This document shows positions 16,547 to 30,553 of a stretch of 56,238 nucleotides of DNA, piece by piece (position 1 is the stretch's first letter; each line of letters begins with the position of its first letter). The notes under the pieces are model-generated. The model saw only the letters and a list, made by a program, of their open reading frames with translations, did no database searches and was not told the origin of the DNA. A program made the position numbers and the translations under genes. Source of the DNA: Candidatus Aminicenantes bacterium (lineage in GTDB: Bacteria > Acidobacteriota > Aminicenantia > Aminicenantales > Aminicenantaceae); assembly GCA_030669305.1 (NCBI GenBank), contig DAOVDU010000003.1, positions 1 to 56,238 on the forward strand. The letters run 5' to 3'.

Positions 16547-17323
16547 ATGTCTAAACTTTGTTTTTTAGGGACAGGTGGTGCTTTTGCGGCCAAAGAAAGG
16601 GATAACACTTCTTTTATTCTTGATTCTGGCAAAACGTTGATTTTAATCGATTGCCCAGGAAGCATTATCCAAAAAATTTATAAGCTGAAGTTTAATCCTC
16701 GAGATGTAAGTTCGATATTAGTAACTCATATTCATCCTGACCATATTTATGGCTTGCCGTCCTTTGTTCACAGCCTCATGCTGGATGGATGCTCGGTAAA
16801 TCTCCTTGGATCGAAAGAAAGTATCAATTTCTGCAAAAAATTACTCGATTTGTTTAATCTGCAGGATAAAAGAATTAAATTCAGGTTTAATTTTGTATCT
16901 TTAAATCCAGGACACAGTTTTCAATTAGCATCTTCGCTATCCTGCACTTCGCTGAAAGTTCCTCATAGTCATTCGTCCCTGGCATTTCACTTTTACTTTG
17001 AAGAAGAAAAAAAAGAATTGCTCTATTCTGGAGACACTCCGATCCATCCTCCTCTTTTTCGAGAGGCTGCAGAAATAGATTATCTTGTTCATGATTGCAG
17101 TGCTCCATCGCGTTTTTTTAGGAAATACCCCTCTCTTCATTCTATGCATACAAATTCTATTGAACTCGGGCGTATTTCCCAAAAGACAGGTATAAAATGC
17201 CTTATTCCCTGTCATTTTTTTAGCGAATTGGATTATTCAATGTCAGAAATTGAGCGTGAGATTAGAAGGAATTACAATGGGAAGCTGATAATACCCGAGG
17301 ACTTAACAAAGATTACTTTATGA
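16547..17323 (+). CDS. RNase Z-like metallo-beta-lactamase hydrolase
   Basis: FLGTGG, LIDCPG, THIHPDHIYGL (HxHxDH), HS, YSGDT, HDCS, HT, PCHF. Confidence 0.88.
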   Translation: MSKLCFLGTGGAFAAKERDNTSFILDSGKTLILIDCPGSIIQKIYKLKFNPRDVSSILVTHIHPDHIYGLPSFVHSLMLDGCSVNLLGSKESINFCKKLLDLFNLQDKRIKFRFNFVSLNPGHSFQLASSLSCTSLKVPHSHSSLAFHFYFEEEKKELLYSGDTPIHPPLFREAAEIDYLVHDCSAPSRFFRKYPSLHSMHTNSIELGRISQKTGIKCLIPCHFFSELDYSMSEIEREIRRNYNGKLIIPEDLTKITL

Positions 17324-17348
17324 TAAAAATGTTGGAAAGGAAAGACAA

Positions 17349-17398
17349 GCAAGACACATGGAAATCAGGGACAGTCCCTTGATTTCCATGTGTCTTGC
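17349..17398. terminator. Perfect 19-bp-arm hairpin with GGGACAGTCCC in the loop; possible terminator or REP-like site
   Basis: GCAAGACACATGGAAATCA (17349-17367) pairs with TGATTTCCATGTGTCTTGC (17380-17398), just downstream of the RNase Z-like gene. Confidence 0.55.
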
Positions 17399-17401
17399 CT
17401 C

Positions 17402-17462
17402 TTTGTCTTGCCAGCAAAGCGTTGTCTTGCCCTTTAGTTTGTCTTGCTTTTATTATTATCTG
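17402..17462 (+). repeat. 61-bp GCAAGACA module, third full copy
   Basis: Identical to 7640-7700; one mismatch to 16293-16353. Confidence 0.93.
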
Positions 17463-17541
17463 AGTTACTGTGTTACAGTGTCACTGAGTCACTTGTTTTG
17501 ATAAACCAGGTAAACCGAATAGACGAAATTAGGAGGTATAG

Positions 17542-17610
17542 ATGAAAGGACTAAGCATTGTAGTTTTGGCTTTATTTTTTGCGATTGGAGTATCTTGCCA
17601 GGCAGCTTAA
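17542..17610 (+). pseudogene. Lipoprotein signal peptide cut off from the amidohydrolase by an in-frame TAA
   Basis: AGGAGG RBS, then MKGLSIVVLALFFAIGVSCQAA*; same frame as the ORF starting at 17620. Confidence 0.75.
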
Positions 17611-17619
17611 AAAAAAAGA

Positions 17620-19218
17620 ATGGCGGAACTTGTTCTTCTCAATGGGGCTATCTGGACAGTAAATCCCGACCAACCTCTGGCTGAGGCCGTAGCTTTAAGG
17701 GAAGAGAAAATCCTAAAAGTTGGCTCATCCAAAGAGATAAAAAAGATGGTTGGGGCTGATACACAGGTAATTGATTTGAAAGGAGACTTTGCCCTCCCAG
17801 GCTTCATCGACTGCCATACTCATTTTCTTGATGGAGGGTTATCTCTCTCGAACATTCAGTTAAGGGAGGCGAAGAGTCGGGAAGAGTTCGTCGCCAGGGT
17901 CAAAGAAAAAACTATGGAAATCGAAAAAGGAGAGTGGATTCTTGATGGAGATTGGGATAATCAGCAGTTTGATCCTCCAGTTCTGCCGGATAAAGAATGG
18001 ATTGATTCAGTTACTCCTCATAATCCTGTATGTGTATGCCGCCTTGATAGCCATATGGTTCTTGTAAATAGTCTCTCCTTGAAGCTTGCCGGAATAACAA
18101 AAAACACATCTTCCCCTGTTGGAGGTGAGATCGTCAAAGATTTTGAGAAAGGAGAACCTACAGGAATTTTAAAAGATGCAGCAATGAATCTCGTCATGCA
18201 GCACATACCAGAGCCTTCGCTAAAAGACAAGAAAAAAGCTGCGGAATTAGCTCTGAAATATGCCAATAAAGTAGGGGTGACCTCTATTCATGATATGGCA
18301 AATGCTGCAAATTTTGAGGTTTACCAAGAGCTTTTAAAGGAAAACAAACTGACAGCCCGCCTTTATGTTTATATTCCCATAACTGAAGTCGATCTTTATG
18401 TTCGTCTTAAATTAAAAAAACCTTTTAATAACAATTTTTTAAAGATCGGGGGATTAAAGGGGTTTGTTGATGGGTCTTTAGGTTCTTCGACTGCTCTGTT
18501 CTTTGAACCATACACCGATGATCCTGAAAAAACAGGCCTGCTCTATTCTCATATGTTTCCAGAGGGAATCATGGAAAAAAGGCTCATGCAGGCCGATAAA
18601 GCAGGACTTCAAGTGGCTATCCATGCTATCGGAGATAAAGCCAACCACATTATCCTTGATATTTTTGAGGAAGTGATGACTCTTAATGGAGCTAGAGACC
18701 GGCGCTGGAGAATTGAGCACGTTCAGCATCTCATTCCTGAAGATATCGAACGTATAGCTAAGCTTAATGTCATTGCTTCTGTCCAGCCTTATCATGCCAT
18801 TGATGATGGAAGATGGGCTGAAAAAAAGATTGGGCATAAGAGAGCCAAATATACATATGTCTTTAAATCTCTCTTGGAGAAAGGAACTGTCCTGGCCTGT
18901 GGTTCTGACTGGACCGTTGCACCTTTAAATCCTCTTACAGGAATCTATGCTGCAGTAACGCGTCAAACACTTGACGGCAAAAATGTAGAGGGCTGGATTC
19001 CCGCGCAAAAAATTTCCTTGGAGGAGGCTATCAGGGGATATACTATAAATGGGGCTTATGTAGAGTTTTCCGAGGATATTAAAGGCTCGATAGAAAAGGG
19101 GAAACTTGCTGATTTTGTCGTGCTCAATCAGAATCTTTTTGAAATTCCTCCTGAAAAAATTAAAGAAACAAAAGTTCAAATGACCATATTTAACGGGAAG
19201 ATTGTTTATAGAAAATAG
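17620..19218 (+). CDS. Amidohydrolase 3 family (YtcJ-like) metal-dependent hydrolase
   Basis: PGFIDCHTH, KGFVDGSLGS.TA, AIHAIGD, RIEHVQ, GSDW.V, KGSIEKGKLADFVVL. Confidence 0.92.
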   Translation: MAELVLLNGAIWTVNPDQPLAEAVALREEKILKVGSSKEIKKMVGADTQVIDLKGDFALPGFIDCHTHFLDGGLSLSNIQLREAKSREEFVARVKEKTMEIEKGEWILDGDWDNQQFDPPVLPDKEWIDSVTPHNPVCVCRLDSHMVLVNSLSLKLAGITKNTSSPVGGEIVKDFEKGEPTGILKDAAMNLVMQHIPEPSLKDKKKAAELALKYANKVGVTSIHDMANAANFEVYQELLKENKLTARLYVYIPITEVDLYVRLKLKKPFNNNFLKIGGLKGFVDGSLGSSTALFFEPYTDDPEKTGLLYSHMFPEGIMEKRLMQADKAGLQVAIHAIGDKANHIILDIFEEVMTLNGARDRRWRIEHVQHLIPEDIERIAKLNVIASVQPYHAIDDGRWAEKKIGHKRAKYTYVFKSLLEKGTVLACGSDWTVAPLNPLTGIYAAVTRQTLDGKNVEGWIPAQKISLEEAIRGYTINGAYVEFSEDIKGSIEKGKLADFVVLNQNLFEIPPEKIKETKVQMTIFNGKIVYRK

Positions 19219-19484
19219 CACATTACTCAGTATGAGATAAATCAAGAGATTTTCTTTCATTTTGTGTGGGTTATATGTATGATAATCTGATGACTAAATG
19301 CCCAATAGTTTGGGAAATCCGAAGTCCGACATATTGAAATCCGAAACAAATTCAAATGACCGTTTTAAAGTGAAAAGTAAAGAATAAGTAGTAAGAAGTA
19401 AACAAGAATAAAAATAATTTTCTCCTAACTTCTTACTCCTTACTTAGTTTTTGGTTTTGAAAATTGCAGGAAAATAGCATTTAG

Positions 19485-20468
19485 ATGATTTATTTGTATT
19501 TTTTCTCTTTTGTTGTTTCTTTCGTTGTTCTGTTTAGAAGTGCAGGTTTTTTTGTCGCGGGGGCTTCAGGTATAGCCAAGGTTCTGAATATTCCCAAAAT
19601 GGTTATAGGGATTGTGCTTGTCAGTCTGGCCACGACTGCACCTGAGTTTAGCGTCTCTGTGATGGCGGCCGCTTTAGGTGAACCAGAAATAGCTTTGGGA
19701 AATGCTGTTGGCTCTGTCATATGTGATGATGGGATTGCCCTTGGTCTGGCTGCAGTTCTTGCTCCGACAGTTATTCTGGTGAATTGCCGAATATTAAAGA
19801 TTGTCGGCATTTTTCTCCTGGCGATCGATTTTTTGGCTTATCTTTTGGCAAGGAATGGGACATTTGGCAGGGTAGAGGGGCTTATTCTTGTTATTATCCT
19901 GTGCCTTTATTTTATTTTAATTCTCAAAAACAAAAACTTCAGGTTTGATAGAGAAGGGCAAAGCAATAATAGTTTAAGCGACAATAAAAAGAATCTTACT
20001 CCATCAGAAAAATCCAGTTTGAAGCGTGTAATCTATCGGTTTATTCTAGGGCTTGTAGGCATCGTCATTACAAGCTATTTTATTGTTTGGGCTGCTAAAG
20101 GTATAGCTTTGCATTTTTCTGTTTCTGAAACCATCATCGGCGCAACAGTTATAGCTATCGGAACATCTCTTCCGGAAATAAGTATCTGTATCACTGCAGC
20201 CCTTAAAGGAGAAGGAGAAATCGCTGTGGGGAATATTATCGGTGCTGATATTCTTAACATTTTGTGGATAATAGGTGTCTCATCCATTGTTAATCCTATA
20301 AAGGTCGAATTGGATTTCATAAACTTTACATTTCCTTACATGATTCTAATGGTCACAGTTATGCTGGTGTGTATGCGAATCGGCTGTCGATTGGGAAAGA
20401 TAAAAGGTGTTATTCTCTTTGGATTCTATATTCTTTATTTGTTTTTAACCCTTAAGTTTTTTATATGA
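19485..20468 (+). CDS. Ca2+/Na+ (CaCA, YrbG-like) antiporter
   Basis: Two alpha repeats (SLATTAPE...GNAVGS; AIGTSLPE...GNIIGA); about 10 hydrophobic helices. Confidence 0.9.
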   Translation: MIYLYFFSFVVSFVVLFRSAGFFVAGASGIAKVLNIPKMVIGIVLVSLATTAPEFSVSVMAAALGEPEIALGNAVGSVICDDGIALGLAAVLAPTVILVNCRILKIVGIFLLAIDFLAYLLARNGTFGRVEGLILVIILCLYFILILKNKNFRFDREGQSNNSLSDNKKNLTPSEKSSLKRVIYRFILGLVGIVITSYFIVWAAKGIALHFSVSETIIGATVIAIGTSLPEISICITAALKGEGEIAVGNIIGADILNILWIIGVSSIVNPIKVELDFINFTFPYMILMVTVMLVCMRIGCRLGKIKGVILFGFYILYLFLTLKFFI

Positions 20469-20653
20469 CAATAAAGTAATATGTTAGTCTGTTTATCTGT
20501 TAGCCAGTTAGTCAGTTAATCTGTTAGTCAGTTAGTCGTCTCCCCCTCTCCCAGTCGTTCTTTTTGCTCCTTACTATTATTTTTTTATCTCTGGTGAACA
20601 AATTTATTTGAATTGAGAAATTAATTTGTTATTATATTCAGTCTTTTTTATGA

Positions 20654-21781
20654 TTGGAGGAAATTATGAATATTGGAGTAATAAACGAGAGTTCCAAGAT
20701 TGAGAACAGAGTAGGATTAACTCCGAGTAGTGTTTCTTTATTAGTGGAAAAGGGACATACGGTTTATGTGCAGGCTGGTGCAGGATTAAAAGCAGGATAC
20801 ACCAACGAAGAATACCTTTCTTTGGGAGCAGAGATTGTTTTTACCAAAGAAGAAGCTATTGGCCGTTCAGATATCGTGCTAAACATTTCGCCTCTTAATG
20901 AGGAAGAATGCGGATTAGTAAAAAAGGGCCAGATTTTATTCGGATTTCATCATTTAGCTGTTGCCCGGAAAAATATCGTGGAAGAACTGCTAAAGAAAAA
21001 TATCACCATGATTGGCTATGAGATCGTTCAAGAAGATAATGAAGACCTTCCATTTATCGAGAGTTTAAGCGAAATTGCTGGACAGATGTGTCTTGTCGTC
21101 TCTGGTCATTATCTCCAGACAAGTCAAGGGGGGCGGGGTAAAGTCATAGGTGGAGTTGTTAGCGTTCCTCCTGCAACTGCTGTTGTTGTGGGAAGTGGAG
21201 TTATTGCCAGAAGTGCCATTAAGGCCTTACTTGGAGCAGGAGCGCATACTATTGCTTTAAGCCGCAATATGGAAAAACTGAGAGAATTGGAAGAGATGAC
21301 CTCTGGGAGATTAATAACTCTTATAGCCAGTAAATACAACTTGGCGCGGATGGTAAAAATCGCAGATATCTTGATCGGAGCAGTCCTGAGGCCAGGAGAA
21401 AAGGCACCTGTTTTGATTACACGGGATATGGTCAAGACTATGAAAAAGAGTGCAGTCCTCATTGATTTAGCAATCGACCAAGGAGGCTGTGCTGAAACAT
21501 CCCGATTGACGACTCTCGAGAATCCTACTTATATAAATGAGGGAGTTATTCATTATTGTGTTCCCAATATCACATCTACGGTGAGCCGTACATCTACAAA
21601 AGTATTATCAAATCTGGTTGCACCTTACTTGCTCCAAATAGCAGCACTTGGGATAGAAAAAGCCTTGAAAGAGAATCCAACTTTGGCAAGGGGTGCATAT
21701 GTTTGCCAGGGAAATATAGTTAGGAAAAGTATTGCAGAAAGGTTTAGTATGCATCATAAAGATCTAGCGTCCATTTTATGA
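20654..21781 (+). CDS. Divergent alanine dehydrogenase / AlaDH-PNT family oxidoreductase
   Basis: ENRVGLTP, GAG..AG, HLA, SEIAG, GAVL.PG.KAP.LIT, DLAIDQGGC.ETS, HYCVPN. Probable start about 20666. Several catalytic and cofactor residues differ (see findings). Confidence 0.82.
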   Translation: MEEIMNIGVINESSKIENRVGLTPSSVSLLVEKGHTVYVQAGAGLKAGYTNEEYLSLGAEIVFTKEEAIGRSDIVLNISPLNEEECGLVKKGQILFGFHHLAVARKNIVEELLKKNITMIGYEIVQEDNEDLPFIESLSEIAGQMCLVVSGHYLQTSQGGRGKVIGGVVSVPPATAVVVGSGVIARSAIKALLGAGAHTIALSRNMEKLRELEEMTSGRLITLIASKYNLARMVKIADILIGAVLRPGEKAPVLITRDMVKTMKKSAVLIDLAIDQGGCAETSRLTTLENPTYINEGVIHYCVPNITSTVSRTSTKVLSNLVAPYLLQIAALGIEKALKENPTLARGAYVCQGNIVRKSIAERFSMHHKDLASIL

Positions 21782-21796
21782 GGGGCTGAGTTTAAA

Positions 21797-22246
21797 ATGG
21801 AAAATTTAAGCGAATTCGAAGCAAATCAAAAAGATCTTATTCATATTCTTCATAAAATCCAGGCAGAATATGGTTACATTCCTTCCCAGGCTTTATCTTC
21901 AATCTCAAAGCATTTGAAAATTTCTGAAAGTGAAATCTTCGGAGTGCTTACTTTTTATAAAGCCTTTAGTCTCAAGCCTCGTGGGAAACACCTCGTCACC
22001 ATATGTACGGGAACAGCCTGTCATGTTAGAGGGGCTCCGATGATTTTGGATGAATTGAAAAGGCAGTTAAGCATCGAGCCAGGAGAAACGACAGAGGATG
22101 ATTTGTTTACGTTAGAAACTGTCAATTGTGTAGGTGCGTGTGCTTTAGGTCCTATTGTTATTTCTGATGGCGATTATCACGGTCAGATGAATACAAGAGA
22201 AGTCAATAAATTGATTAAAAAAATAAAAAAAGAAATCAAGGAATAG
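21797..22246 (+). CDS. NuoE/HydC-like [2Fe-2S] subunit (BfuC)
   Basis: TFY..F, ICTGTACHVRG, TVNCVGACALGP. Confidence 0.92.
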   Translation: MENLSEFEANQKDLIHILHKIQAEYGYIPSQALSSISKHLKISESEIFGVLTFYKAFSLKPRGKHLVTICTGTACHVRGAPMILDELKRQLSIEPGETTEDDLFTLETVNCVGACALGPIVISDGDYHGQMNTREVNKLIKKIKKEIKE

Positions 22247-22255
22247 TATTGAATA

Positions 22256-24169
22256 ATGGATAAGATCAGCATCACAAGGTTAGAGGAAATAAAAACTGAA
22301 GTTGCAGAGTCCAGAAAGAAGCAAAAAACCTGCATTACTATCTGCGGAGGAACTGGATGTCATGCCTATGGATGCTTAGAAATAGCTCAAGCTTTTAAGA
22401 ATGCAATAAAGAAACAAAGACTGCAAAACCAGGTAAATGTAAGAACTACAGGGTGCCATGGATTTTGTGAGAGAGGGCCTATTGTTGTCATTCAACCTGC
22501 GGGAATTTTTTACCAAAGGGTTAAGCTTGATGATATAAATGAAATAATTTCTGAAACCATAATTAATAAAAAAGTCTTAGACAGGCTTCTTTATGTTGAT
22601 CCCAGAACAGGTGAGAGAATAGTTGAAGAAAAGGAAGTTCCTTTTTATAAAAAGCAAAAGCGCATAATTTTTGGGAATAACGGATTCATAGATCCCACAG
22701 ATGTCAAAGATTATATTGCCCTGGATGGTTATAAAGCTCTTACGAAAGTCCTCTTTAATTATACTTCAGAAGAGGTCATCAGCGAGATTAAGACATCCGG
22801 TCTTAGGGGAAGAGGAGGAGCGGGATTTCTTACTGGGATTAAGTGGGAAATTTGCCGCCAAAGTCTGGCTGATGTGAAATATGTCATCTGTAATGCAGAT
22901 GAGGGAGATCCAGGTGCCTACATGGACCGGAGTTTGTTAGAAGGTAATCCGCACAGCGTTATTGAGGGCATGATCATAGGGGCTTATGCCATTGGTGCAT
23001 CAGAGGGATATATTTATGTTCGTATGGAATATCCTCTTGCCGTTAAGAATATAACAGTAGCCTTAAAACAAGCCAGAAATCTTGGGCTGCTGGGTGAATT
23101 TATCCTCGGGTCTGAATTCAGCTTTGATATTAATATCTTCAGAGGAGCTGGGGCATTCGTTTCAGGAGAAGAGACTTCTTTGATGGCTTCCATAGAAGGT
23201 CGGCGTGCTTTCCCAAGACAGCGACCTCCTTTTCCTGCTCAAAAAGGATTATGGGGAAAGCCAACCAATATCAACAATGTGGAAACCTGGGCTAATGTTC
23301 CTTTGATTCTTAACAAAGGGGCTGACTGGTATTCTCAGATAGGCACAAAAAAGAGTAAGGGGACAAAAATATTTTCTCTTGTTGGGAAGATAAACAATAC
23401 TGGTTTGGTTGAAGTACCCATGGGAATTACACTGAGAGAGATTGTCTATGATATCGGTGGCGGCATAAAAGAAAACAAAAAGTTCAAAGCTGTACAGACA
23501 GGAGGCCCTTCAGGAGGCTGTATTCCTGCGGAGATGCTTGATTTAAGTATTGACTTTGATACCCTCACGAAAGTTGGGTCAATGATGGGCTCTGGCGGGA
23601 TGATTGTCATGGATGAAGATACATGTATGGTTGATATTGCTCGGTATTTTCTTGAATTTACCCAGGAAGAATCCTGCGGGAAGTGTGTTCCTTGTCGTAT
23701 TGGAACTAGACAGTTGGTAGAAATTTTAACGCGCATCACTCAGGGCAAAGGGGAAGAAGGAGATGTTAAAAAGCTCTTAGATTTGGCAAAGATTATAAAG
23801 GAAGGTTCGCTCTGTGGATTAGGTCAGACTGCTCCCAATCCCGTACTTACAACCATTAAGCATTTTCGAGATGAGTACGAAGCTCACATCATAGAAAAAA
23901 GTTGTCCGGCACTTTCCTGTAAAGACCTGATTGTCTATTACATAGAACCAAAAAAGTGCGTTGGATGTCTTTTATGTTTAAAGAGTTGCCCTGTAAGCGC
24001 TATTAAGGGGGAGAGGAAGATGGTGCATGTGATTGATCAAGATCTATGCATTAAGTGTGGTGCTTGCCTTGATGTGTGCCCTCCAAAGGTAGGGGCTGTC
24101 TCTAAATATACGGGTAAGAAGAGAGATAGAATTTTGAAAAAAGCTTCTTCGATAAGAGATAGAAAATGA
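22256..24169 (+). CDS. NuoF/HydB-like FMN/NAD(H) subunit of bifurcating type (BfuB)
   Basis: N-terminal CGGTGC...GCHGFC [2Fe-2S]; SGLRGRGGAGF, NADEGDPG, GEET; SCGKCVPCR..CGLG; H..EKSCPALSC; two C-terminal CxxCxxCxxxCP ferredoxin motifs. Confidence 0.92.
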   Translation: MDKISITRLEEIKTEVAESRKKQKTCITICGGTGCHAYGCLEIAQAFKNAIKKQRLQNQVNVRTTGCHGFCERGPIVVIQPAGIFYQRVKLDDINEIISETIINKKVLDRLLYVDPRTGERIVEEKEVPFYKKQKRIIFGNNGFIDPTDVKDYIALDGYKALTKVLFNYTSEEVISEIKTSGLRGRGGAGFLTGIKWEICRQSLADVKYVICNADEGDPGAYMDRSLLEGNPHSVIEGMIIGAYAIGASEGYIYVRMEYPLAVKNITVALKQARNLGLLGEFILGSEFSFDINIFRGAGAFVSGEETSLMASIEGRRAFPRQRPPFPAQKGLWGKPTNINNVETWANVPLILNKGADWYSQIGTKKSKGTKIFSLVGKINNTGLVEVPMGITLREIVYDIGGGIKENKKFKAVQTGGPSGGCIPAEMLDLSIDFDTLTKVGSMMGSGGMIVMDEDTCMVDIARYFLEFTQEESCGKCVPCRIGTRQLVEILTRITQGKGEEGDVKKLLDLAKIIKEGSLCGLGQTAPNPVLTTIKHFRDEYEAHIIEKSCPALSCKDLIVYYIEPKKCVGCLLCLKSCPVSAIKGERKMVHVIDQDLCIKCGACLDVCPPKVGAVSKYTGKKRDRILKKASSIRDRK

Positions 24170-26730
24170 TAATTTTCATCGATGGGAAAAAATTTGGAAT
24201 CGAGAGCAAAAAGACAATTTTGGAAGCTGCTCGGGAAAACGAAATCTATATCCCTTCACTTTGTGATCATTCTCGCTTGAGTCCTTTCAGTGGCTGCCGG
24301 CTTTGTATCGTCGAAATCAAAGGACGCAGAGGATATGTTCCCTCATGTAGCACTTATGTTGAAGAAGGAATGGATGTGAAGACAGATTCTCCCCGGCTAA
24401 GAAAAATGAGAAAACAGATTTTAGAGCTCATCCTTTCTGAACATCCGAATGCCTGTCTTATTTGTAGTGAGAAAGAAAATTGCGATGAATATAAGTCAAC
24501 AATCAGGAAGGTCGGCGAAGTTACAGGATGCGTGCTTTGTCCAAACAACGGCCGCTGTGAACTTCAGGATGTCGTAAAAGCTTTGAAAATTGATAAAGTA
24601 AGGTTTCCGTCTGTTTATAGAAATTATGAAGTTAAGAAGAATGATCCTTTTTTTGATCGAAACTACAATTTATGCATCCTGTGCGGAAGATGTGTTAGGG
24701 TTTGTCATGATTTAAGGGGATCATCAGCTGTTTCCTTTGTTTTTAGAGGTTCTAAAGCAGGAATAGGGACAGTATTTGATCAGACACTTCTTGAGGCAGG
24801 CTGTCAGTTCTGCGGTGCTTGTGTTGACGTGTGTCCAACAGGAGCTTTAACTGAAAGAGCCCTTAAGTATGAGACATTGCCTGATGAAACGAGAAAAACC
24901 ATTTGTCCCTTCTGTAGTATTGGCTGTGAGCTTAAAATGGAACTCAAGGAGGGCAGAATATTAAACTCTGCCCCTTCCGAAGATGGGCCTGTAAATCAAG
25001 GGCAGGCTTGTGTCAAGGGACGATTCACGATAAAGGATGCTGTCTATAGCTCCCAAAGAATTCTCAAGCCCATGATCCGAAAAAATAAAGAGCTTGAAGA
25101 GGTAAGCTGGGAAGAAGCTTTGGATTTTGTTGCCAAGAAGCTCAAAAAATATAAAGGGAAAGAGATTGGATTGATTGCTTCTCCTCAAGTCTCTAACGAA
25201 GACAATTTTCTTATTCATAAATTTGCGGAATATGTGTTGAAAACAGAAAATATTGACAGTGTTGTCCGGTTTTCATCTTACGCAGTTTTTCAGGATTTGG
25301 CTCAAAAAAATGGTTTCGAGCTCAATTTGAATTTTAAAATTGAGGATATCTCCAAGGCAAAGACCATATTCCTTCTTGGAGCCGATATCGTTGTTACTCA
25401 TCCAATAATTTGGCTCGAGGTTTTAAGAGCAGTTAATAACGGAGCTAAGCTCATTGTCGCGAGCTCAGTCGATTTTTTCCTTAACCGCTTTTCTTCGCTT
25501 TGGCTTAAGATGAAACCTGGATCTGAATACTTTTTGCTTAGTTTTCTCTCTAAAGTTATTATCGACAAAAGCAAAGTCGAAAATCTGGCCCAGATTGAAG
25601 GTTTTAAAAATCTCAAAAGCTCTCTGGATGAACTCGATTTATCTCAGGCCATTGAAAAAACTGACATTGAAGAGGAAAATATAAAGAAAGCAGCCGAGAT
25701 TCTTATTAAGGAGACGCCGTCGGTTTTTATATTTGGAATGGAGTTGACTCAGCTTCCGTGGGGAAGCCAAAATTTGGCTGGCCTCTGGAATTTATCTCTT
25801 CAGACCCAGGGTCAGCTTGTTCCTCTTGGCTTAGAAACTAATCTAAGAGGTCTTTTTGAGCTGAATCGCCATTGTTCTAGTAACACAAAAGGTTTTAAGC
25901 GAATCATCCAGGATGCTGAAGAAGGAAAAGTTAAAGCCCTTTACCTGGCAAGCCCAATTCCCTATTCCCAGAAAGCGAAGTTTGAATTTTTAGTTATTCA
26001 AGACAGCTTTATGAGTGAAAACATGAAAAAGGCTGATGCTGTTTTACCTGCCGCAAGTTTTGCAGAAATAGAAGGGACCTTTGTCAATGTTGAAGGAAGG
26101 ATTCAGAAATTTAATAAAGTCATTGAACCTCTCGGGGAAGCAAAACCTGATTGGTGGATAATCTCTCAATTAGCACAAAAGATGGGACATAACGAGTTAA
26201 ACTACAATGCCTCTTCAGAAATTTCTAAAGAGATGATTAAAAATATTCCTGGTTTTTCAGGTATATCGTTCCAAAAGTTGAAGAAAGGTGAGAGACTTTT
26301 TATTCAGGAGGAGAAGAAAGGAAAAAAGAAATTTGTACCAATAAAATTCTTTTCCACATCCATTGAAACCAGCAAAGAATATCCGTTTCTTATGCTTGTG
26401 GATTACAATTTAGATTACTACAAAAATCTTGATTTGAGTCAGGAAATCAAAGCCTTTGGAATAATCAGAAATTCAAGATGGTTTAAAATAAATCCAAATG
26501 ATGCAAAAAAAACAAAGCTGAAAGATGGAGAAACCATGGAGGTTGAATCCTCGAAGGGAAAAGTCAAGGGAATTGTTAAAGTTTTAGAATCAGTGCCCAG
26601 AGGAACAATAGTAGCCAGCTTCCTCTGGAATGAAGAAGAAACAATTTCTGTGGCGCGACTTGTCTCTCCTTTGTCTAATGCATCGCATTCTTTAGTATTA
26701 CTGCCCGTAAAAATTAAAAGAGGAAAATAA
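24166..26730 (+). CDS. NuoG/FdhA-like subunit (BfuA): Fe-S relay plus molybdopterin-oxidoreductase-fold domain lacking the metal ligand
   Basis: IPSLC...CRLC...SC, HxxxCxxC, CILCGRCVRVC, CQFCGACVDVCP, CPFCSIGC...CVKG, ADAVLPAA...E.EGTFVNVEGRIQ. Confidence 0.85.
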   Translation: MIIFIDGKKFGIESKKTILEAARENEIYIPSLCDHSRLSPFSGCRLCIVEIKGRRGYVPSCSTYVEEGMDVKTDSPRLRKMRKQILELILSEHPNACLICSEKENCDEYKSTIRKVGEVTGCVLCPNNGRCELQDVVKALKIDKVRFPSVYRNYEVKKNDPFFDRNYNLCILCGRCVRVCHDLRGSSAVSFVFRGSKAGIGTVFDQTLLEAGCQFCGACVDVCPTGALTERALKYETLPDETRKTICPFCSIGCELKMELKEGRILNSAPSEDGPVNQGQACVKGRFTIKDAVYSSQRILKPMIRKNKELEEVSWEEALDFVAKKLKKYKGKEIGLIASPQVSNEDNFLIHKFAEYVLKTENIDSVVRFSSYAVFQDLAQKNGFELNLNFKIEDISKAKTIFLLGADIVVTHPIIWLEVLRAVNNGAKLIVASSVDFFLNRFSSLWLKMKPGSEYFLLSFLSKVIIDKSKVENLAQIEGFKNLKSSLDELDLSQAIEKTDIEEENIKKAAEILIKETPSVFIFGMELTQLPWGSQNLAGLWNLSLQTQGQLVPLGLETNLRGLFELNRHCSSNTKGFKRIIQDAEEGKVKALYLASPIPYSQKAKFEFLVIQDSFMSENMKKADAVLPAASFAEIEGTFVNVEGRIQKFNKVIEPLGEAKPDWWIISQLAQKMGHNELNYNASSEISKEMIKNIPGFSGISFQKLKKGERLFIQEEKKGKKKFVPIKFFSTSIETSKEYPFLMLVDYNLDYYKNLDLSQEIKAFGIIRNSRWFKINPNDAKKTKLKDGETMEVESSKGKVKGIVKVLESVPRGTIVASFLWNEEETISVARLVSPLSNASHSLVLLPVKIKRGK

Positions 26731-27563
26731 TGGCAAAGATTTTGCAGAGAAAACGCTTAGTCCCAAATATTCATCTTCTGGAGGTACATGCTCCTGAGGT
26801 TGCCCAAAAATGTAAACCAGGTCAGTTTGTCATTATCATGCCTGACGAGCGTGGAGAAAGAATTCCATTAACCATAGGGGACTGGGATGAGAAAAAAGGT
26901 TCTGTTACTTCGGTGTTTCTTGTGGTTGGGACTTCAACCCACAAACTCTCGATGCTCGAAGCAGGAGATGAAGTACCTGTCTTTGTCGGGCCTTTAGGCA
27001 AGCCTTCTGAAATAGAAAAATACGGAACAGTCCTTTGTGCTGGAGGCTGTTTTGGTATTGCGGCCATTTATCCCATTGCCCGTGCTCTAAAAGAAGCAGG
27101 GAACAAGATTATCACTCTCTTGGATGTTAAAGCCAATTACCTAATTTATTGGGAAGATAAGTTAAAAGCTGTAAGCGATCAATTTTTTATTTCAGCTCGG
27201 GACAGCTATTACGACTGTAAGGAATACATCCCAAACACACTCGAGAAAATAGTGAAAAAGGAAAAGAAAATCGACCGTGTTGTTTCTATAGGGTGTACTT
27301 ATTTGATGTATACCTGTTCGGAAGCCACAAAACCTTATGGAATAAAGACAGTAGTCAGCCTCAATCCTATCATGGTGGATGGAACCGGGATGTGTGGAGC
27401 ATGCCGTGTAACCATTGACGGAAAGACGAAATTTGCCTGTGTGGACGGGCCAGATTTTGACGGCCATTTAGTCGACTGGGATGAGCTTTTTTCGAGAAGG
27501 AAGTCCTATTTTGAAGATGAAATTCAGTCTTTATGTTACTGGGAAAAGGAAACCTTTCCTTAA
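26730..27563 (+). CDS. nfnA: NfnA/SudB-like FAD/[2Fe-2S] subunit
   Basis: PGQFVI...GERIPLTI, VGPLGKP, SLNPIMVDGTGMCGACRV...FACVDGPDFD. Confidence 0.88.
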   Translation: MAKILQRKRLVPNIHLLEVHAPEVAQKCKPGQFVIIMPDERGERIPLTIGDWDEKKGSVTSVFLVVGTSTHKLSMLEAGDEVPVFVGPLGKPSEIEKYGTVLCAGGCFGIAAIYPIARALKEAGNKIITLLDVKANYLIYWEDKLKAVSDQFFISARDSYYDCKEYIPNTLEKIVKKEKKIDRVVSIGCTYLMYTCSEATKPYGIKTVVSLNPIMVDGTGMCGACRVTIDGKTKFACVDGPDFDGHLVDWDELFSRRKSYFEDEIQSLCYWEKETFP

Positions 27564-27593
27564 AAGCTTAAGACATGAAAGAGTAGAGAAAAC

Positions 27594-29096
27594 ATGAGTG
27601 AGAATAAAAAAGAAATGCCTCAGGAGCTCAAAAAAAGGCTCAGGACCGCGTTTAATGAAGAGTGGCGCAAAGAGCTGCGCAAATCCCTACCTGCGAAGGA
27701 AAGAATAAAGATTCCTCGCCAGAAGATGCCAGAGAGAGATGCTGAAGAACGGAACAAGGATTTTTATGAAGTTAACCTTGGTTTGGAAGCTAAGATGGCT
27801 AAGGCGGAAGCCCAGAGATGCCTGGATTGTGCTAATCCTCAATGTGTGACAGGCTGCCCTGTTGGTATTGATATTCCCACGTTCATAAAACTTATAGAGA
27901 TAGGAGATTTCGAACAGAGTGTTCGAATGATAAAAGAGACTAACAGTCTTCCAGCTATCTGTGGCCGTGTATGCCCGCAGGAAACTCAGTGTGAAGTTGT
28001 TTGCAATCTAAAAAAAGCCACTGGTGTTCCAGTTGCTATTGGAAATTTGGAGCGGTTTGTTGCTGATTATGAGAGAATTAATGGAAATGTTTATATCCCT
28101 CCTATACCGCCGGCAACTGGCAAGAAAGTGGCCATTATCGGAGCAGGGCCTGCAGGCCTTACTGTAGCCGGAGATCTGGCAAGAAAAGGCCATAAGGTGA
28201 CAATTTTTGAAGCCCTCCATATTGCAGGCGGTGTTCTGGTCTACGGAATACCCGAATTCAGGCTTCCAAAAAAAAGCCTTCAAGCAGAAGTGGAATACCT
28301 TGAACGACTAGGAGTTGAGTTGAAAACAAATTTTGTTGTGGGTAAAACTGCTACTCTGAAAGATTTAGAAAACGAGGGATACGATGCGTTTTTTATAGGG
28401 TCAGGGGCAGGGCTGCCGAATTTTATGAGGATTCCTGGAGAAAATTTGATCGGAGTCTATTCGGCTAACGAATATTTAACACGGGTAAATCTGATGAGGG
28501 CCTATGAATTTCCTAAATATGATACCCCCGTGTTTTTAGGAAAGAAAGCAGCAGTGCTTGGCGGTGGTAATGTTGCCATGGATTCAGTCCGAACAGCCAA
28601 GAGACTCGGTGCTGAAATGGCGGCTATTGTCTACCGCCGTTCAAGTGTTGAGATGCCGGCAAGGGCAGAAGAAGTGCATCATGCAGAAGAGGAAGGCATT
28701 GAGTTTCTTTTTTTGACAACCCCAATAAGATACTTTGGGGATGAAAAAGGCCGGGTTAAGGCTATGGAATGTTTGAGAATGGAACTCGGTGAGCCTGATG
28801 CTTCTGGAAGACGTCGGCCTATTCCTATTAAAGGTTCAGAGTTTGTCATGGATGCTGACTTGGTTGTTGTGGCGATTGGAAACAGCCCTAATCCATTGAT
28901 TCCACAGACTACTCCTCAATTAAAAGTTGGAAAATGGGGAAATGTGGAAGTTGATTGGGACACTATGGCTACCAGTATAAAAGGAGTTTATGCTGGAGGA
29001 GATATTATTCGTGGTGGAGCTACGGTTATTTTGGCAATGGGCGATGCCCGAATTGCAGCAGCCAGTATTGATAAATACCTGTCAAATAAAAAGTGA
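27594..29096 (+). CDS. nfnB: NfnB/SudA-like (GltD-family) NADP(H) flavoprotein
   Basis: RCLDC.NPQCVTGCP, CGRVCPQETQCE, GAGPAG, YGIPEFRLP, GGGNVAMD, YRRS, GGD..RG.ATVILAM; directly follows nfnA. Confidence 0.88.
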   Translation: MSENKKEMPQELKKRLRTAFNEEWRKELRKSLPAKERIKIPRQKMPERDAEERNKDFYEVNLGLEAKMAKAEAQRCLDCANPQCVTGCPVGIDIPTFIKLIEIGDFEQSVRMIKETNSLPAICGRVCPQETQCEVVCNLKKATGVPVAIGNLERFVADYERINGNVYIPPIPPATGKKVAIIGAGPAGLTVAGDLARKGHKVTIFEALHIAGGVLVYGIPEFRLPKKSLQAEVEYLERLGVELKTNFVVGKTATLKDLENEGYDAFFIGSGAGLPNFMRIPGENLIGVYSANEYLTRVNLMRAYEFPKYDTPVFLGKKAAVLGGGNVAMDSVRTAKRLGAEMAAIVYRRSSVEMPARAEEVHHAEEEGIEFLFLTTPIRYFGDEKGRVKAMECLRMELGEPDASGRRRPIPIKGSEFVMDADLVVVAIGNSPNPLIPQTTPQLKVGKWGNVEVDWDTMATSIKGVYAGGDIIRGGATVILAMGDARIAAASIDKYLSNKK

Positions 29097-29250
29097 ATAG
29101 TGAATGGTGAATAGTAAACACTGTTATACAGCCGTACTGCAATACTGCAAACTGAAGACTGCCTATTGGTATTTTCGCCCTGTCGCCATTTCTCCGTTTC
29201 GCCGGTTCGTTCTTTTTGCTCCTAACTCCTCACTTCTTACTAATCTTGGA
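29093..29250. repeat. Heptamer mosaic (GTGAATA, ACTGCAA, CTCCTAA families)
   Basis: AGTGAATAGTGAATGGTGAATAGTAAA...; CTCCTAACTCCTCACTTCTTACT. Confidence 0.7.
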
Positions 29251-29257
29251 GGTTTAA

Positions 29258-30553
29258 ATGCCTTGGGTAGATGATTACAAAAAAAAGTTAGTAACTGCCG
29301 AGGAAGCAGTTGCTAAAATTAATAGTCACAACCGCGTTTACATAAGCGGTAACGCTGCAACTCCTTATGTATTGATGAAAGCATTAGCTTCTAGGAAGGA
29401 TGAGCTGGAAGGCGTTGAACTTGTTCATGTTCTCCTTTTAGGGGAAGACCCTCTAGCTAAGCCTGAAATGGAGGGTCATTTTCGCCATAATTCTCTCTTT
29501 GTCGGCCCTGCAGACAGAAAAGCCATAAATGAAGGAAGAGCAGATTATATTCCGATCTTTCTTCACCAGATTCCCAATCTTTTTTATTCAGGGCAAATGC
29601 TCCTTGATGTGGCTGTGCTTCATCTTTCCCCGCCTGATGAGCATGGTTTTATGAGTTATGGTGTAGAGGTTTTGGCCTCCAAGGCTGCTGCAGAGACGGC
29701 GAAGATCGTTATTGCTCAGGTCAACGAAAAGATGCCGCGAGTTCTAGGAGATTCTTTTATTCATGTTTCTCGAGTCCACAAAATTATTGAGGTTTCGGAG
29801 GACCTTCCTCAGCTGGAGAAGAAACCTTTCAGTGAAGTGGAAAGAAAGATAGGCCATTTTATTGCTGAACTAATTGAAGATGGTTCCACTCTTCAGTTAG
29901 GCATTGGAGGAATCCCTGATGCTGTGCTTTCTGCCTTAAAAGGTAGGCAAGATTTAGGTATCCACACAGAAATGGTTTCAGATGGAGTAATGGAGGCCAT
30001 AGAAGATGGAATCATAACTGGGGCCAAAAAGACATTTCATCCATATAAAGTGATTTTGACTTTTATATTAGGGTCAAACAAACTTTATAAATTTGCCAAT
30101 AATAATCCAACATTTGAGGCACATCCTGTAGACTATGTAAATCATCCCTTTAACGTTTCTCAAAACGAGACTATGGTAGCTATAAATTCTGCCGTCGAAG
30201 TGGATATCACTGGTCAGGTCTGCTCTGATTCTATTGGCACCTATATTTATAGCGGCTTCGGCGGCCAGGTTGATTTCATTCGTGGAGCTGCTCATTCTAA
30301 AAAGGGTCTTCCAATCATTGCTCTTCCTTCCACAGCAAAGAAAGGAGAGATATCCCGGATTGTCCCTTTCCTCAAAAGAGGAGCAGGAGTTGTTACAACT
30401 CGAGGTGATGTCAAGTATGTGGTTACAGAATATGGAGTTGCCTATCTGCATGGGAAGAACTTAAAAGAAAGGACAGAAGCTTTGATCAACATTGCCCACC
30501 CAAATTTCAAAGATGATTTAATAAAAGAAGCAAAGGACAGGCATCTTATTTAA
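29258..30553 (+). CDS. Acetyl-CoA hydrolase/transferase family (4-hydroxybutyrate/succinate CoA-transferase-like)
   Basis: GRADYIP.FL, GSTLQLGIGGIP, catalytic Glu in HTEM, GGQVDF.RGA, VTT.RGDV.YVVTEYG.A. Confidence 0.92.
   Translation: MPWVDDYKKKLVTAEEAVAKINSHNRVYISGNAATPYVLMKALASRKDELEGVELVHVLLLGEDPLAKPEMEGHFRHNSLFVGPADRKAINEGRADYIPIFLHQIPNLFYSGQMLLDVAVLHLSPPDEHGFMSYGVEVLASKAAAETAKIVIAQVNEKMPRVLGDSFIHVSRVHKIIEVSEDLPQLEKKPFSEVERKIGHFIAELIEDGSTLQLGIGGIPDAVLSALKGRQDLGIHTEMVSDGVMEAIEDGIITGAKKTFHPYKVILTFILGSNKLYKFANNNPTFEAHPVDYVNHPFNVSQNETMVAINSAVEVDITGQVCSDSIGTYIYSGFGGQVDFIRGAAHSKKGLPIIALPSTAKKGEISRIVPFLKRGAGVVTTRGDVKYVVTEYGVAYLHGKNLKERTEALINIAHPNFKDDLIKEAKDRHLI

Follow-up and report, generated by a model that had tools for sequence, protein, structure and literature searches.

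An NADP-type alanine-dehydrogenase-like protein encoded with electron-bifurcation genes in Aminicenantia, a candidate regulator of a CoA-transferase

The stretch of DNA analysed here, called the window throughout, is 56,238 nucleotides of contig DAOVDU010000003.1 from a Candidatus Aminicenantes bacterium (GenBank assembly GCA_030669305.1). At 20666-21781 on its forward strand lies a gene for an alanine-dehydrogenase-like protein (ALDL), followed by a run of redox genes and then by the gene for a CoA-transferase (CoAT). We propose, with a probability of about 0.6, that ALDL is a catalytically dead member of the ADLP clade, a group of alanine dehydrogenase (AlaDH) relatives, that senses NADP(H) and regulates CoAT. 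The proposal draws on sequence comparison and on analogy with one protein pair of Thermus thermophilus.

That pair is described in a preprint from the Nishiyama laboratory (Yoshida et al. 2025, bioRxiv 10.1101/2025.10.31.685773; PDB 9vae, 9vag, 9wns and 9wnu). In the T. thermophilus ADLP, TT_C1082 (TtADLP), Ala takes the place of the catalytic Lys. The protein turned over neither alanine nor pyruvate nor any of the other 19 amino acids, unlike its active canonical paralogue TT_C1770. TtADLP forms a hexamer with dissociation constants of 9 µM for NAD+ and 0.2 µM for NADH, and this hexamer binds dimers of TT_C1083 (TtCoAT), the short-chain acyl-CoA:acetate CoA-transferase encoded by the adjacent gene. 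NAD+-bound ADLP inhibits TtCoAT, and NADH relieves the inhibition. Cryo-electron microscopy places TtCoAT loop 120-126 in the cleft between both ADLP domains, with Asp123-His125 touching Glu2, Arg69 and Arg88 of another ADLP subunit. Asp199 of TtADLP hydrogen-bonds the 2'/3'-OH of the adenine ribose, and Arg200 stacks on the adenine. ADLPs form a clade distinct from true AlaDHs in which Lys is replaced throughout by Ala, Ser, Gly, Asp or Thr (bioRxiv 10.1101/2025.10.31.685773). PDB entries 9wns and 9wnu hold the chain that the window CoAT matches together with a chain named 'alanine dehydrogenase'. A search for the Thermus ADLP among 150 representatives by the residue numbers of the preprint gave no match; a Thermus orthologue was reached through CoAT, from the PDB alignment to a homologue search and on to the encoding contig. 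That orthologue (L091) has 345 amino acids and overlaps the start of its own CoAT.

Active site and clade of ALDL

A single open reading frame of 375 codons occupies 20654-21781 (+). The sequence-only reading had begun the protein at TTG 20654; the likely start is instead ATG 20666, 12 nt further downstream, which has GGAGG (20656-20660) 5 nt ahead of it and agrees with the N termini of most homologues, MNIGV or MNVGV. The product is covered full length by the Pfam domains AlaDh_PNT_N and AlaDh_PNT_C, and its closest solved relatives are true AlaDHs (T. thermophilus 2eez, E = 3e-88, full-length alignment). It scores 350.9 bits against the NCBIfam alanine dehydrogenase model TIGR00518, below the curated cut-off of 391.85. 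The features on which the argument turns are as follows.

20656..20660, +: Shine-Dalgarno sequence GGAGG, 5 nt before ATG 20666
20666..21781, +: ALDL, an ADLP-type alanine-dehydrogenase-like protein of 371 amino acids, predicted inactive NADP(H)-binding regulator (Pfam, profile scores, neighbour-joining placement)
20864..20866, +: codon of Arg67, ADLP-specific and invariant, probable equivalent of TtADLP Arg69 (alignment)
20882..20893, +: N73-I74-S75-P76 in place of K-V-K-E, with the pyruvate-binding catalytic Lys gone (alignment, column tables)
20948..20953, +: H95-H96, the second being the conserved AlaDH His and the first specific to this family (column tables)
21191..21208, +: dinucleotide fingerprint GSGVIA (GxGxxA), G176-A181 (alignment; A181 in 86/89)
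21260..21265, +: S199-R200 at the end of beta-2, with the adenine-ribose Asp lost (alignment, column tables)
21473..21487, +: IDQGG; D271 and Q272, nicotinamide-ribose ligands, kept (column tables, Thermus structure)
29258..30553, +: CoAT, PF02550/PF13336, short-chain acyl-CoA:acetate type (PDB 9vag_F/9wns/9wnu, 620.7 bits)
29627..29647, +: CoAT loop SPPDEHG, the same as TtCoAT residues 120-126, which enter the ADLP cleft (alignment)

Motifs were read from alignment to 2EEZ and other solved AlaDHs together with column tables, and their conservation was counted over 89 Aminicenantia orthologues. No Lys occurs anywhere in the segment matching KVKEP (canonical Lys74/75; Lys73 in TT_C1770). Its replacements are fixed or nearly so: N73 and P76 in 89/89 orthologues and S75 in 86/89, with residue 75 either Ser or Ala in all 89. 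AGRM has become AGQM, and Q140 is found in 85/89. Arg15 is invariant, as are H96 and D271 (89/89 each). The sequence-only reading had listed GSGVIA, a Lys-free NISP, AGQM and the retained Arg15, His96 and Asp271; all of these hold across the 89 orthologues, and the changes are neither chance nor sequencing error. The retained residues do not discriminate between a live and a dead enzyme, because the inactive Thermus ADLP keeps the same Arg, His and Asp.

To place ALDL, we built one hidden Markov model (HMM) from 25 CoAT-adjacent ADLPs, none of them from Aminicenantia, and another from 32 canonical AlaDHs. ALDL scores 483.4 bits with the ADLP HMM and 413.8 with the canonical HMM, a difference of +69.6. 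Held-out ADLPs gave +68 to +164 bits (the Thermus ADLP +67.9), and held-out canonical AlaDHs gave -56 to -110. Neighbour-joining trees put the Aminicenantia family inside the Lys-less assemblage, beside the CoAT-adjacent ADLP of locus L094 and the group of L006, L150, L151 and L161. ALDL also has Arg67, an aromatic residue at 59, Gly117 and Tyr345, characters shared with ADLPs and absent from canonical AlaDHs; it has, with other ADLPs, a one-residue insertion after HLAV (position 100), and has lost Lys10, Lys75, Glu76 and His284. Arg67 is present in 100% of the Aminicenantia proteins and 98% of other CoAT-adjacent ADLPs, whereas canonical AlaDHs have no dominant residue there. Its equation with Arg69 was made through the Thermus orthologue, with a numbering offset of 4-5 residues. 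The phylogenetic comparison that the sequence-only reading had suggested thus places ALDL, by trees and profiles alike, among CoAT-adjacent Lys-less ADLPs, and we regard its membership in the clade as very probable. The same reading's statement that this is not a normal alanine dehydrogenase is borne out by the absent Lys, the TIGR00518 score and the preference for the ADLP profile.

The pairing of such genes with CoAT extends well beyond Aminicenantia. ADLP-like genes overlap or abut CoAT orthologues in a WOR-3 contig, an Eisenbacteria contig and L006. A metagenome scan anchored on CoAT returned 80 loci, 62 of which have room upstream (locus counts here and below are not phylogenetically independent). 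An ADLP lies directly upstream of CoAT in 43, about 500 bp upstream in 1 and upstream with Nfn/Bfu genes between in 10, whereas 6/62 have no ADLP and 2/62 are Bfu-Nfn-CoAT clusters without one. An ADLP is therefore upstream in about 87% of informative loci, and the pairing is common, not rare. Among 41 complete CoAT-adjacent ADLPs from outside Aminicenantia, the Lys column holds Lys once and otherwise G, S, Q, R, A, M, L, N or H, while Arg15 is kept in 41/41 and Asp271 in 40/41.

Close relatives of ALDL itself form a narrow set. A search of 5.8 billion proteins gave thousands of matches, the best 120 of which share 75-98% identity with it and, if named at all, belong to Aminicenantes. A scan with one genome per species found 80 loci, all in Aminicenantia metagenome-assembled genomes, at 61-81% identity, and the next cluster in a 50%-identity representative library is only 49% identical to ALDL; the family thus forms a close-knit clade under strong constraint, confined to a single bacterial class. 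Orthologues, where named, are annotated 'alanine dehydrogenase'. Public runs containing the window are marine-sediment and cold-seep metagenomes.

Some relatives have other surroundings. In L081 and L083 (10001-13911) the gene ends 1 nt before ResB/CcsA genes for cytochrome c biogenesis, with no CoAT or Nfn nearby, and P0121 (L005, 8001-9119), the nearest out-group, lies among HlyD/MacB-type efflux (ABC) genes, which give no functional clue. All three keep NISP or KISP, with no catalytic Lys, and an NAD-type pocket. In L151 (136-8434), from an unrelated lineage, an NAD-type ADLP-CoAT pair stands beside a divergently oriented Bfu-type cluster that encodes BfuC, BfuB and an NfnB-like domain joined to a BfuA-like domain; the arrangement may be coincidence, as just one of the 43 directly adjacent pairs shows it.

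The CoA-transferase and the redox cluster

The window CoAT is an orthologue of TtCoAT (TT_C1083; 66% identity), and the seven residues that enter the ADLP cleft in Thermus are unchanged. The Asp-Glu-His triad of this loop occurs in 104/109 ADLP-linked CoATs and in 1/9 CoATs that have room upstream but no ADLP (Fisher p = 1.5e-8, uncorrected for shared ancestry); the ADLP-less proteins read DEF, DNH, DDY, DSK, DIH or DDH. Such co-variation fits the prediction of a conserved protein-protein contact and suggests that the interaction has been retained in the organism of the window. CoAT orthologues without an upstream ADLP come from Calidithermus (L092, 5001-6359) and from several metagenome lineages (L129, L133, L134, L140, L142 and L157), and the triad is changed in every one of these seven. 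The preprint reports that acetylation of Thermus CoAT Lys5 relieves the ADLP inhibition and that Lys5 is conserved only in Thermus (bioRxiv 10.1101/2025.10.31.685773). In contrast, Lys-Lys or Lys-Arg occupies the place of Lys5-Lys6 (YKKKL, YKKRL) in many CoATs, from Aminicenantia and elsewhere; in the window, Lys9-Lys10 (29282-29287) align with this pair.

Between ALDL and CoAT lie five genes on the same strand.

21797..22246, +: BfuC / NuoE-like [2Fe-2S] subunit (family profile matches)
22256..24169, +: BfuB / NuoF-like FMN subunit with N-terminal [2Fe-2S] and C-terminal 2x[4Fe-4S] domains (profile matches)
24166..26730, +: BfuA-like Fe-S subunit with an Fdh/NuoG-type molybdopterin-like domain (profile matches)
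26730..27563, +: NfnA/SudB-like FAD/NAD(H) subunit (NF004862, 374 bits, above cut-off)
27594..29096, +: NfnB/GltD-like NADPH Fe-S flavoprotein (TIGR01316, 617.9 bits, above cut-off)

The stop of ALDL ends at 21781 and bfuC begins at 21797, leaving the 15-nt spacer that the sequence-only reading had given, and the co-directional bfu/nfn cluster headed by ALDL that it described is likewise present. A gene for RNase HII comes next after CoAT, and everything from ALDL through RNase HII is on the forward strand.

Which of these genes belong together was judged from locus variation, by tblastn of window proteins against the fetched loci, 54 of 80 genome loci extending far enough downstream. CoAT is downstream on the same strand in all 54 informative loci of NADP-type orthologues (the pocket type is described below). 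The interval is less regular: all five redox genes fill it in 46/54, NfnB alone in 3/54 (L078, L079 and L082), BfuB with NfnB in 2/54, BfuB alone in 1/54, BfuB with BfuA and NfnB in 1/54, and nothing in 1/54 (L073), so that at least one redox gene intervenes in 53/54. One NfnB-only locus, L079 (10001-14002), is from a complete chromosome and has spacers of 61 and 23 nt. ALDL and CoAT are directly adjacent in Aminicenantia loci L073 and L130. Because CoAT is found in 54/54 while the intervening genes vary, we take CoAT, not Bfu/Nfn, to be the constant partner; the linkage to bfu/nfn is nonetheless kept in most Aminicenantia, as shown by the synteny comparison that the sequence-only reading had proposed.

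Several loci show the varied interval (L078, L079, L082, L034/L035, L026, L073, L085 and L130), and the fingerprint is most degenerate in the NfnB-only ones, where it reads G-x-S-x-x-A and is followed by Gly-Leu. L095 (2713-11293) and L099 carry BfuCBA-NfnAB-CoAT-RNase HII clusters with no ADLP-like gene upstream; the upstream gene in L095 is a divergent sulfatase/TPR gene, and the CoAT triad reads DEH in L095 and DIH in L099. Bfu/Nfn and CoAT therefore stay linked even where the putative sensor is missing.

The redox genes have features of their own. The domain set of the window BfuB is that described for bifurcating BfuB (PMC9304861), and the order BfuC-BfuB-BfuA with separate NfnA and NfnB (21797-29096) matches none of the Bfu types in that survey, whose Nfn-Bfu type has a GltD-like domain fused into BfuA. 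The best PDB match of the BfuA-like protein is Rhodobacter capsulatus FdsA (301 bits, residues 4-572 only), and the protein scores under the NCBIfam cut-offs for both Fdh-alpha and NuoG. Heptamer repeats, GTGAATA GTGAATG GTGAATA GTAAAC, run at 29093-29120, beginning directly behind the nfnB stop codon, in the 162-nt spacer before CoAT.

Signals for expression were sought upstream. Two overlapping sigma-70-like -35/-10 matches (20608..20654, +), a possible operon promoter by consensus only, lie in the 197-nt spacer before ALDL: TTGAAT-16-TATTAT with a TG, and TTGTTA-17-TATGAT. Promoter and terminator scans found no more sites than in shuffled sequence. Public runs labelled 'METAGENOMIC RNA-Seq' span the ALDL-bfuC junction in contigs of 90-170 kb with even coverage; they are probably DNA and hence no proof of co-transcription. 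One true metatranscriptome (X28) gave a single 208-nt contig within ALDL. The 197-nt spacer also contains a near-repeat run (GTTAGTCAGTTAATCTGTTAGTC... at 20484-20538). Public runs cover it at 4-6x the depth of its flanks, with many loose ends that lead off into sequences unrelated to it, which marks it as a short repeat dispersed through these genomes, perhaps a regulatory or repetitive extragenic palindromic (REP)-like element.

Cofactor pocket, proposed mechanism and alternatives

The dinucleotide pocket sets this family apart from other ADLPs. An NADP-type state, with Ala at the third fingerprint position and no acid at 199, occurs in 86-87 of 89 family members and in 0/41 other ADLPs, all of which have GxGxxG (41/41) and an acid at residue 199 (Asp in 40, Glu in 1). 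Only L081 and L083, basal and unlinked to CoAT or Nfn, keep GxGxxG and Asp within the family; because they and the other ADLPs are NAD-type, the NADP-type pocket is derived. The switch coincides with the lineage whose cluster holds the NADPH-linked nfnB.

For true AlaDHs, changes at this Asp are listed as conversions from NAD to NADP: D198A in Shewanella and D196A/L197R in Bacillus subtilis (PMC5817062). The sequence-only reading had taken GxGxxA, loss of Asp and gain of Arg in LSRN as NADP signatures. The first two stand: residue 199 is not Asp in 87/89 orthologues. Ser, however, is not the family residue, since Gly is usual at 199 (85/89) and the Ser199 of the window is a minority state. The gain of Arg has to be given up, as Arg200 also stands beside Asp199 in the NAD-binding Thermus ADLP and residue 200 varies in the family (R 46, H 24, T 7, L 4 and others among the 89). 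The informative changes are the loss of Asp and GxGxxA, not Arg200, and on these motifs ALDL probably binds NADP(H). In eleven other AlaDH representatives (P0152, P0159, P0182, P0195, P0196, P0201, P0216, P0227, P0236, P0246 and P0250), beta-2 ends not in Asp but in Ser, Asn, Gly or Ala, with Arg behind it. All but P0159 (Gln) keep the catalytic Lys; from these motifs, the eleven may be natural NADP-preferring alanine dehydrogenases.

We hypothesize a mechanism in which the loss of catalysis, a physical complex with CoAT, NADP(H) binding and the sign of regulation are all presumed. ALDL would be a hexamer of the AlaDH fold that, with its catalytic Lys lost, turns over no amino acid but keeps its dinucleotide site and the cleft between the domains. 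On the model of TtADLP-TtCoAT, it would bind dimers of CoAT by taking the SPPDEHG loop into that cleft. One redox form of NADP would favour an open, loop-accepting conformation that clamps the CoAT dimer and lowers its activity, and the other form would release it. The pocket is remodelled (GxGxxA; Asp to Gly or Ser, usually then Arg or His), and the sensed couple should therefore be NADP+/NADPH, not NAD+/NADH. As the Nfn/Bfu module would interconvert NADPH, NADH and ferredoxin, the cluster may tie acyl-CoA/acetate exchange to the NADP(H) pool. A bolder version makes the ADLP hexamer an NADP(H)-sensing hub that couples the Nfn/Bfu transhydrogenase to acyl-CoA transfer, physically or kinetically, for example by docking both CoAT dimers and NfnB, so that the NADPH/NADP+ ratio made by bifurcation would gate fermentative acyl-CoA flux. 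We consider this hub improbable. If real, it would give the uncultured Aminicenantia of sediments a novel kind of switch between redox state and carbon flux.

Several observations weigh against a CoAT regulator. The sole precedent is a preprint, and ALDL is only 39% identical to a Thermus ADLP. ALDL stands about 7.5 kb from CoAT with five genes between and the 162-nt spacer before CoAT; its nearest relatives (L081, L083 and P0121) are not next to CoAT; and the trees are neighbour-joining trees without bootstrap support. In 18/89 orthologues Thr, Ser or Ala replaces the second Gly of the fingerprint, and some members have no basic residue at 200; part of the family may therefore bind the nucleotide more weakly or in an altered way. 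Finally, the invariant Arg15, His96 and Asp271, with a conserved new His95, would also fit a live active site.

That last point belongs to the alternative that survives best, although we think it unlikely: an active NADP(H)-dependent dehydrogenase with the AlaDH fold, acting on a new substrate that needs no Lys75 carboxylate clamp and is tied, for example, to the acids handled by CoAT, with NADPH exchanged with the Nfn/Bfu module. Besides the three invariant residues, His95 and Asn73 are family-specific and conserved, purifying selection is strong (61-82% identity across about 80 species), and the gene with its NADP-type pocket is clustered with the NADPH-linked NfnB. Yet the Thermus ADLP, with the same Arg, His and Asp, showed no turnover of alanine, pyruvate or the remaining 19 amino acids, and in its complex the CoAT loop fills the cleft, which explains conservation without catalysis. 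Membership in the ADLP clade also argues against a live enzyme, as does the Lys column, non-Lys in 40/41 CoAT-adjacent ADLPs and varied as expected of a relaxed catalytic site. The earlier suggestion of an NADPH-linked enzyme with a new substrate therefore keeps its NADP-type pocket, while its enzymatic half is weakened by an inactive Thermus protein with the same residues.

Less probable still is a subunit of Bfu/Nfn, resembling transhydrogenase domain I, that passes hydride or NADP(H) to NfnB or BfuB and possibly also binds CoAT. The position 15 nt upstream of bfuC in a tight co-directional cluster speaks for it, as do an NADP-type pocket confined to the lineage with nfn/bfu in the cluster and the redox genes that precede CoAT in all but one informative locus. 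Those genes, however, vary freely from five to none, with no obligate co-occurrence, and BfuCBA-NfnAB-CoAT clusters exist without ALDL (L095 and L099). The PntA models score far under their cut-offs (NF006942, 130.8 against 383; TIGR00561, 113.7 against 444.4), the survey of the Bfu family describes no AlaDH-like subunit (PMC9304861), and hydride transfer in transhydrogenase needs a domain III (dIII) partner, which is absent here: no qualifying match to PntA or PntB was found among the ten window proteins scanned (16547-30553). What the sequence-only reading had offered as a nucleotide-binding partner of the Bfu/Nfn complex was near the mark in its non-catalytic partner protein and wrong about the partner, CoAT being constant and the redox genes dispensable.

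An ordinary AlaDH of a divergent phylum, merely NADP-preferring and with irrelevant neighbours, is highly improbable: the source annotation reads 'alanine dehydrogenase' and solved AlaDHs align full length at E = 3e-88, but the protein falls below the TIGR00518 cut-off, the pyruvate-binding Lys and the neighbouring Glu are gone, the ADLP profile is better than the canonical one by 70 bits, and the Lys-less Thermus homologue is inactive whereas canonical TT_C1770 is active. PntA domain I, relatives of saccharopine dehydrogenase and opine synthase, and dehydrogenases of amino-acid fermentation were considered and dropped, as scores, clade and context favour an ADLP. An AlphaFold2 model of ALDL from 42 close homologues had a mean predicted local distance difference test (pLDDT) score of 41.8, low because the homologue alignment is too shallow and uniform, and was left unused.

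That an AlaDH-derived pseudoenzyme can regulate a CoA-transferase has been known since late 2025. New here are the predicted NADP-type pocket, the bifurcation genes between candidate sensor and target, and the wide occurrence of the ADLP-CoAT pair in metagenomes. If ALDL is a regulator of CoAT, its place in the alanine or ammonium metabolism of published-style metabolic reconstructions is mistaken, and a regulatory principle so far described once, in Thermus, is extended. With the Aminicenantia branch, an ADLP would for the first time be predicted to read NADP(H), and it is encoded with the enzymes that set that pool. Electron bifurcation, NADPH balance and the exchange of short-chain fatty acids and acyl-CoA would thereby be linked, in a way that can be tested directly, in marine-sediment bacteria that are abundant and uncultured.

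Comparison with known systems

A literature search on AlaDH combined with Bfu or Aminicenantes found nothing. The Bfu and NfnABC/NfnSL enzymes (PMC9304861, PMC11829005 and PMC12018979) have BfuC/BfuB/BfuA and NfnA/NfnB domain sets that match those at 21797-29096; they are described without an AlaDH-like subunit, and ALDL itself is outside these families. PntA domain I shares the AlaDh_PNT superfamily with ALDL and, as proposed for ALDL, binds a nucleotide and works through a protein partner, not on a small substrate. It binds NAD(H), however, not NADP(H), and ALDL comes without a membrane domain or dIII partner.

Canonical AlaDHs (EC 1.4.1.1; Mycobacterium tuberculosis Rv2780, 2vhw; 2eez) are like ALDL in their two-domain fold, their length, about 40-44% identity and the equivalents of Arg15, His96 and Asp270. 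ALDL is unlike them in having no Lys75 or Glu76, Gln for Arg140, the insertion after HLA and an NADP-type fingerprint. The engineered NADP-accepting AlaDHs (PMC5817062) share with it a small residue for Asp at the end of beta-2, followed in B. subtilis D196A/L197R by Arg as in ALDL. The engineered proteins are active and have the catalytic Lys, whereas in ALDL the change is natural and the protein a presumed pseudoenzyme.

The nearest likeness is to the Thermus ADLP. Both proteins have the AlaDH fold without the catalytic Lys, keep Arg15, His and Asp and the nicotinamide-side ligands of IDQGG, and carry the ADLP-specific Arg (Arg67, probably Arg69 in T. thermophilus); in both organisms ADLP and CoAT are encoded on the same strand in one cluster. 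They differ in the pocket, where GxGxxA and Ser or Gly in place of Asp199 predict NADP(H) for ALDL and the Thermus protein binds NAD(H), and in the arrangement of the genes: the Thermus ADLP gene is adjacent to that of CoAT, whereas in the window five redox genes stand between the two.

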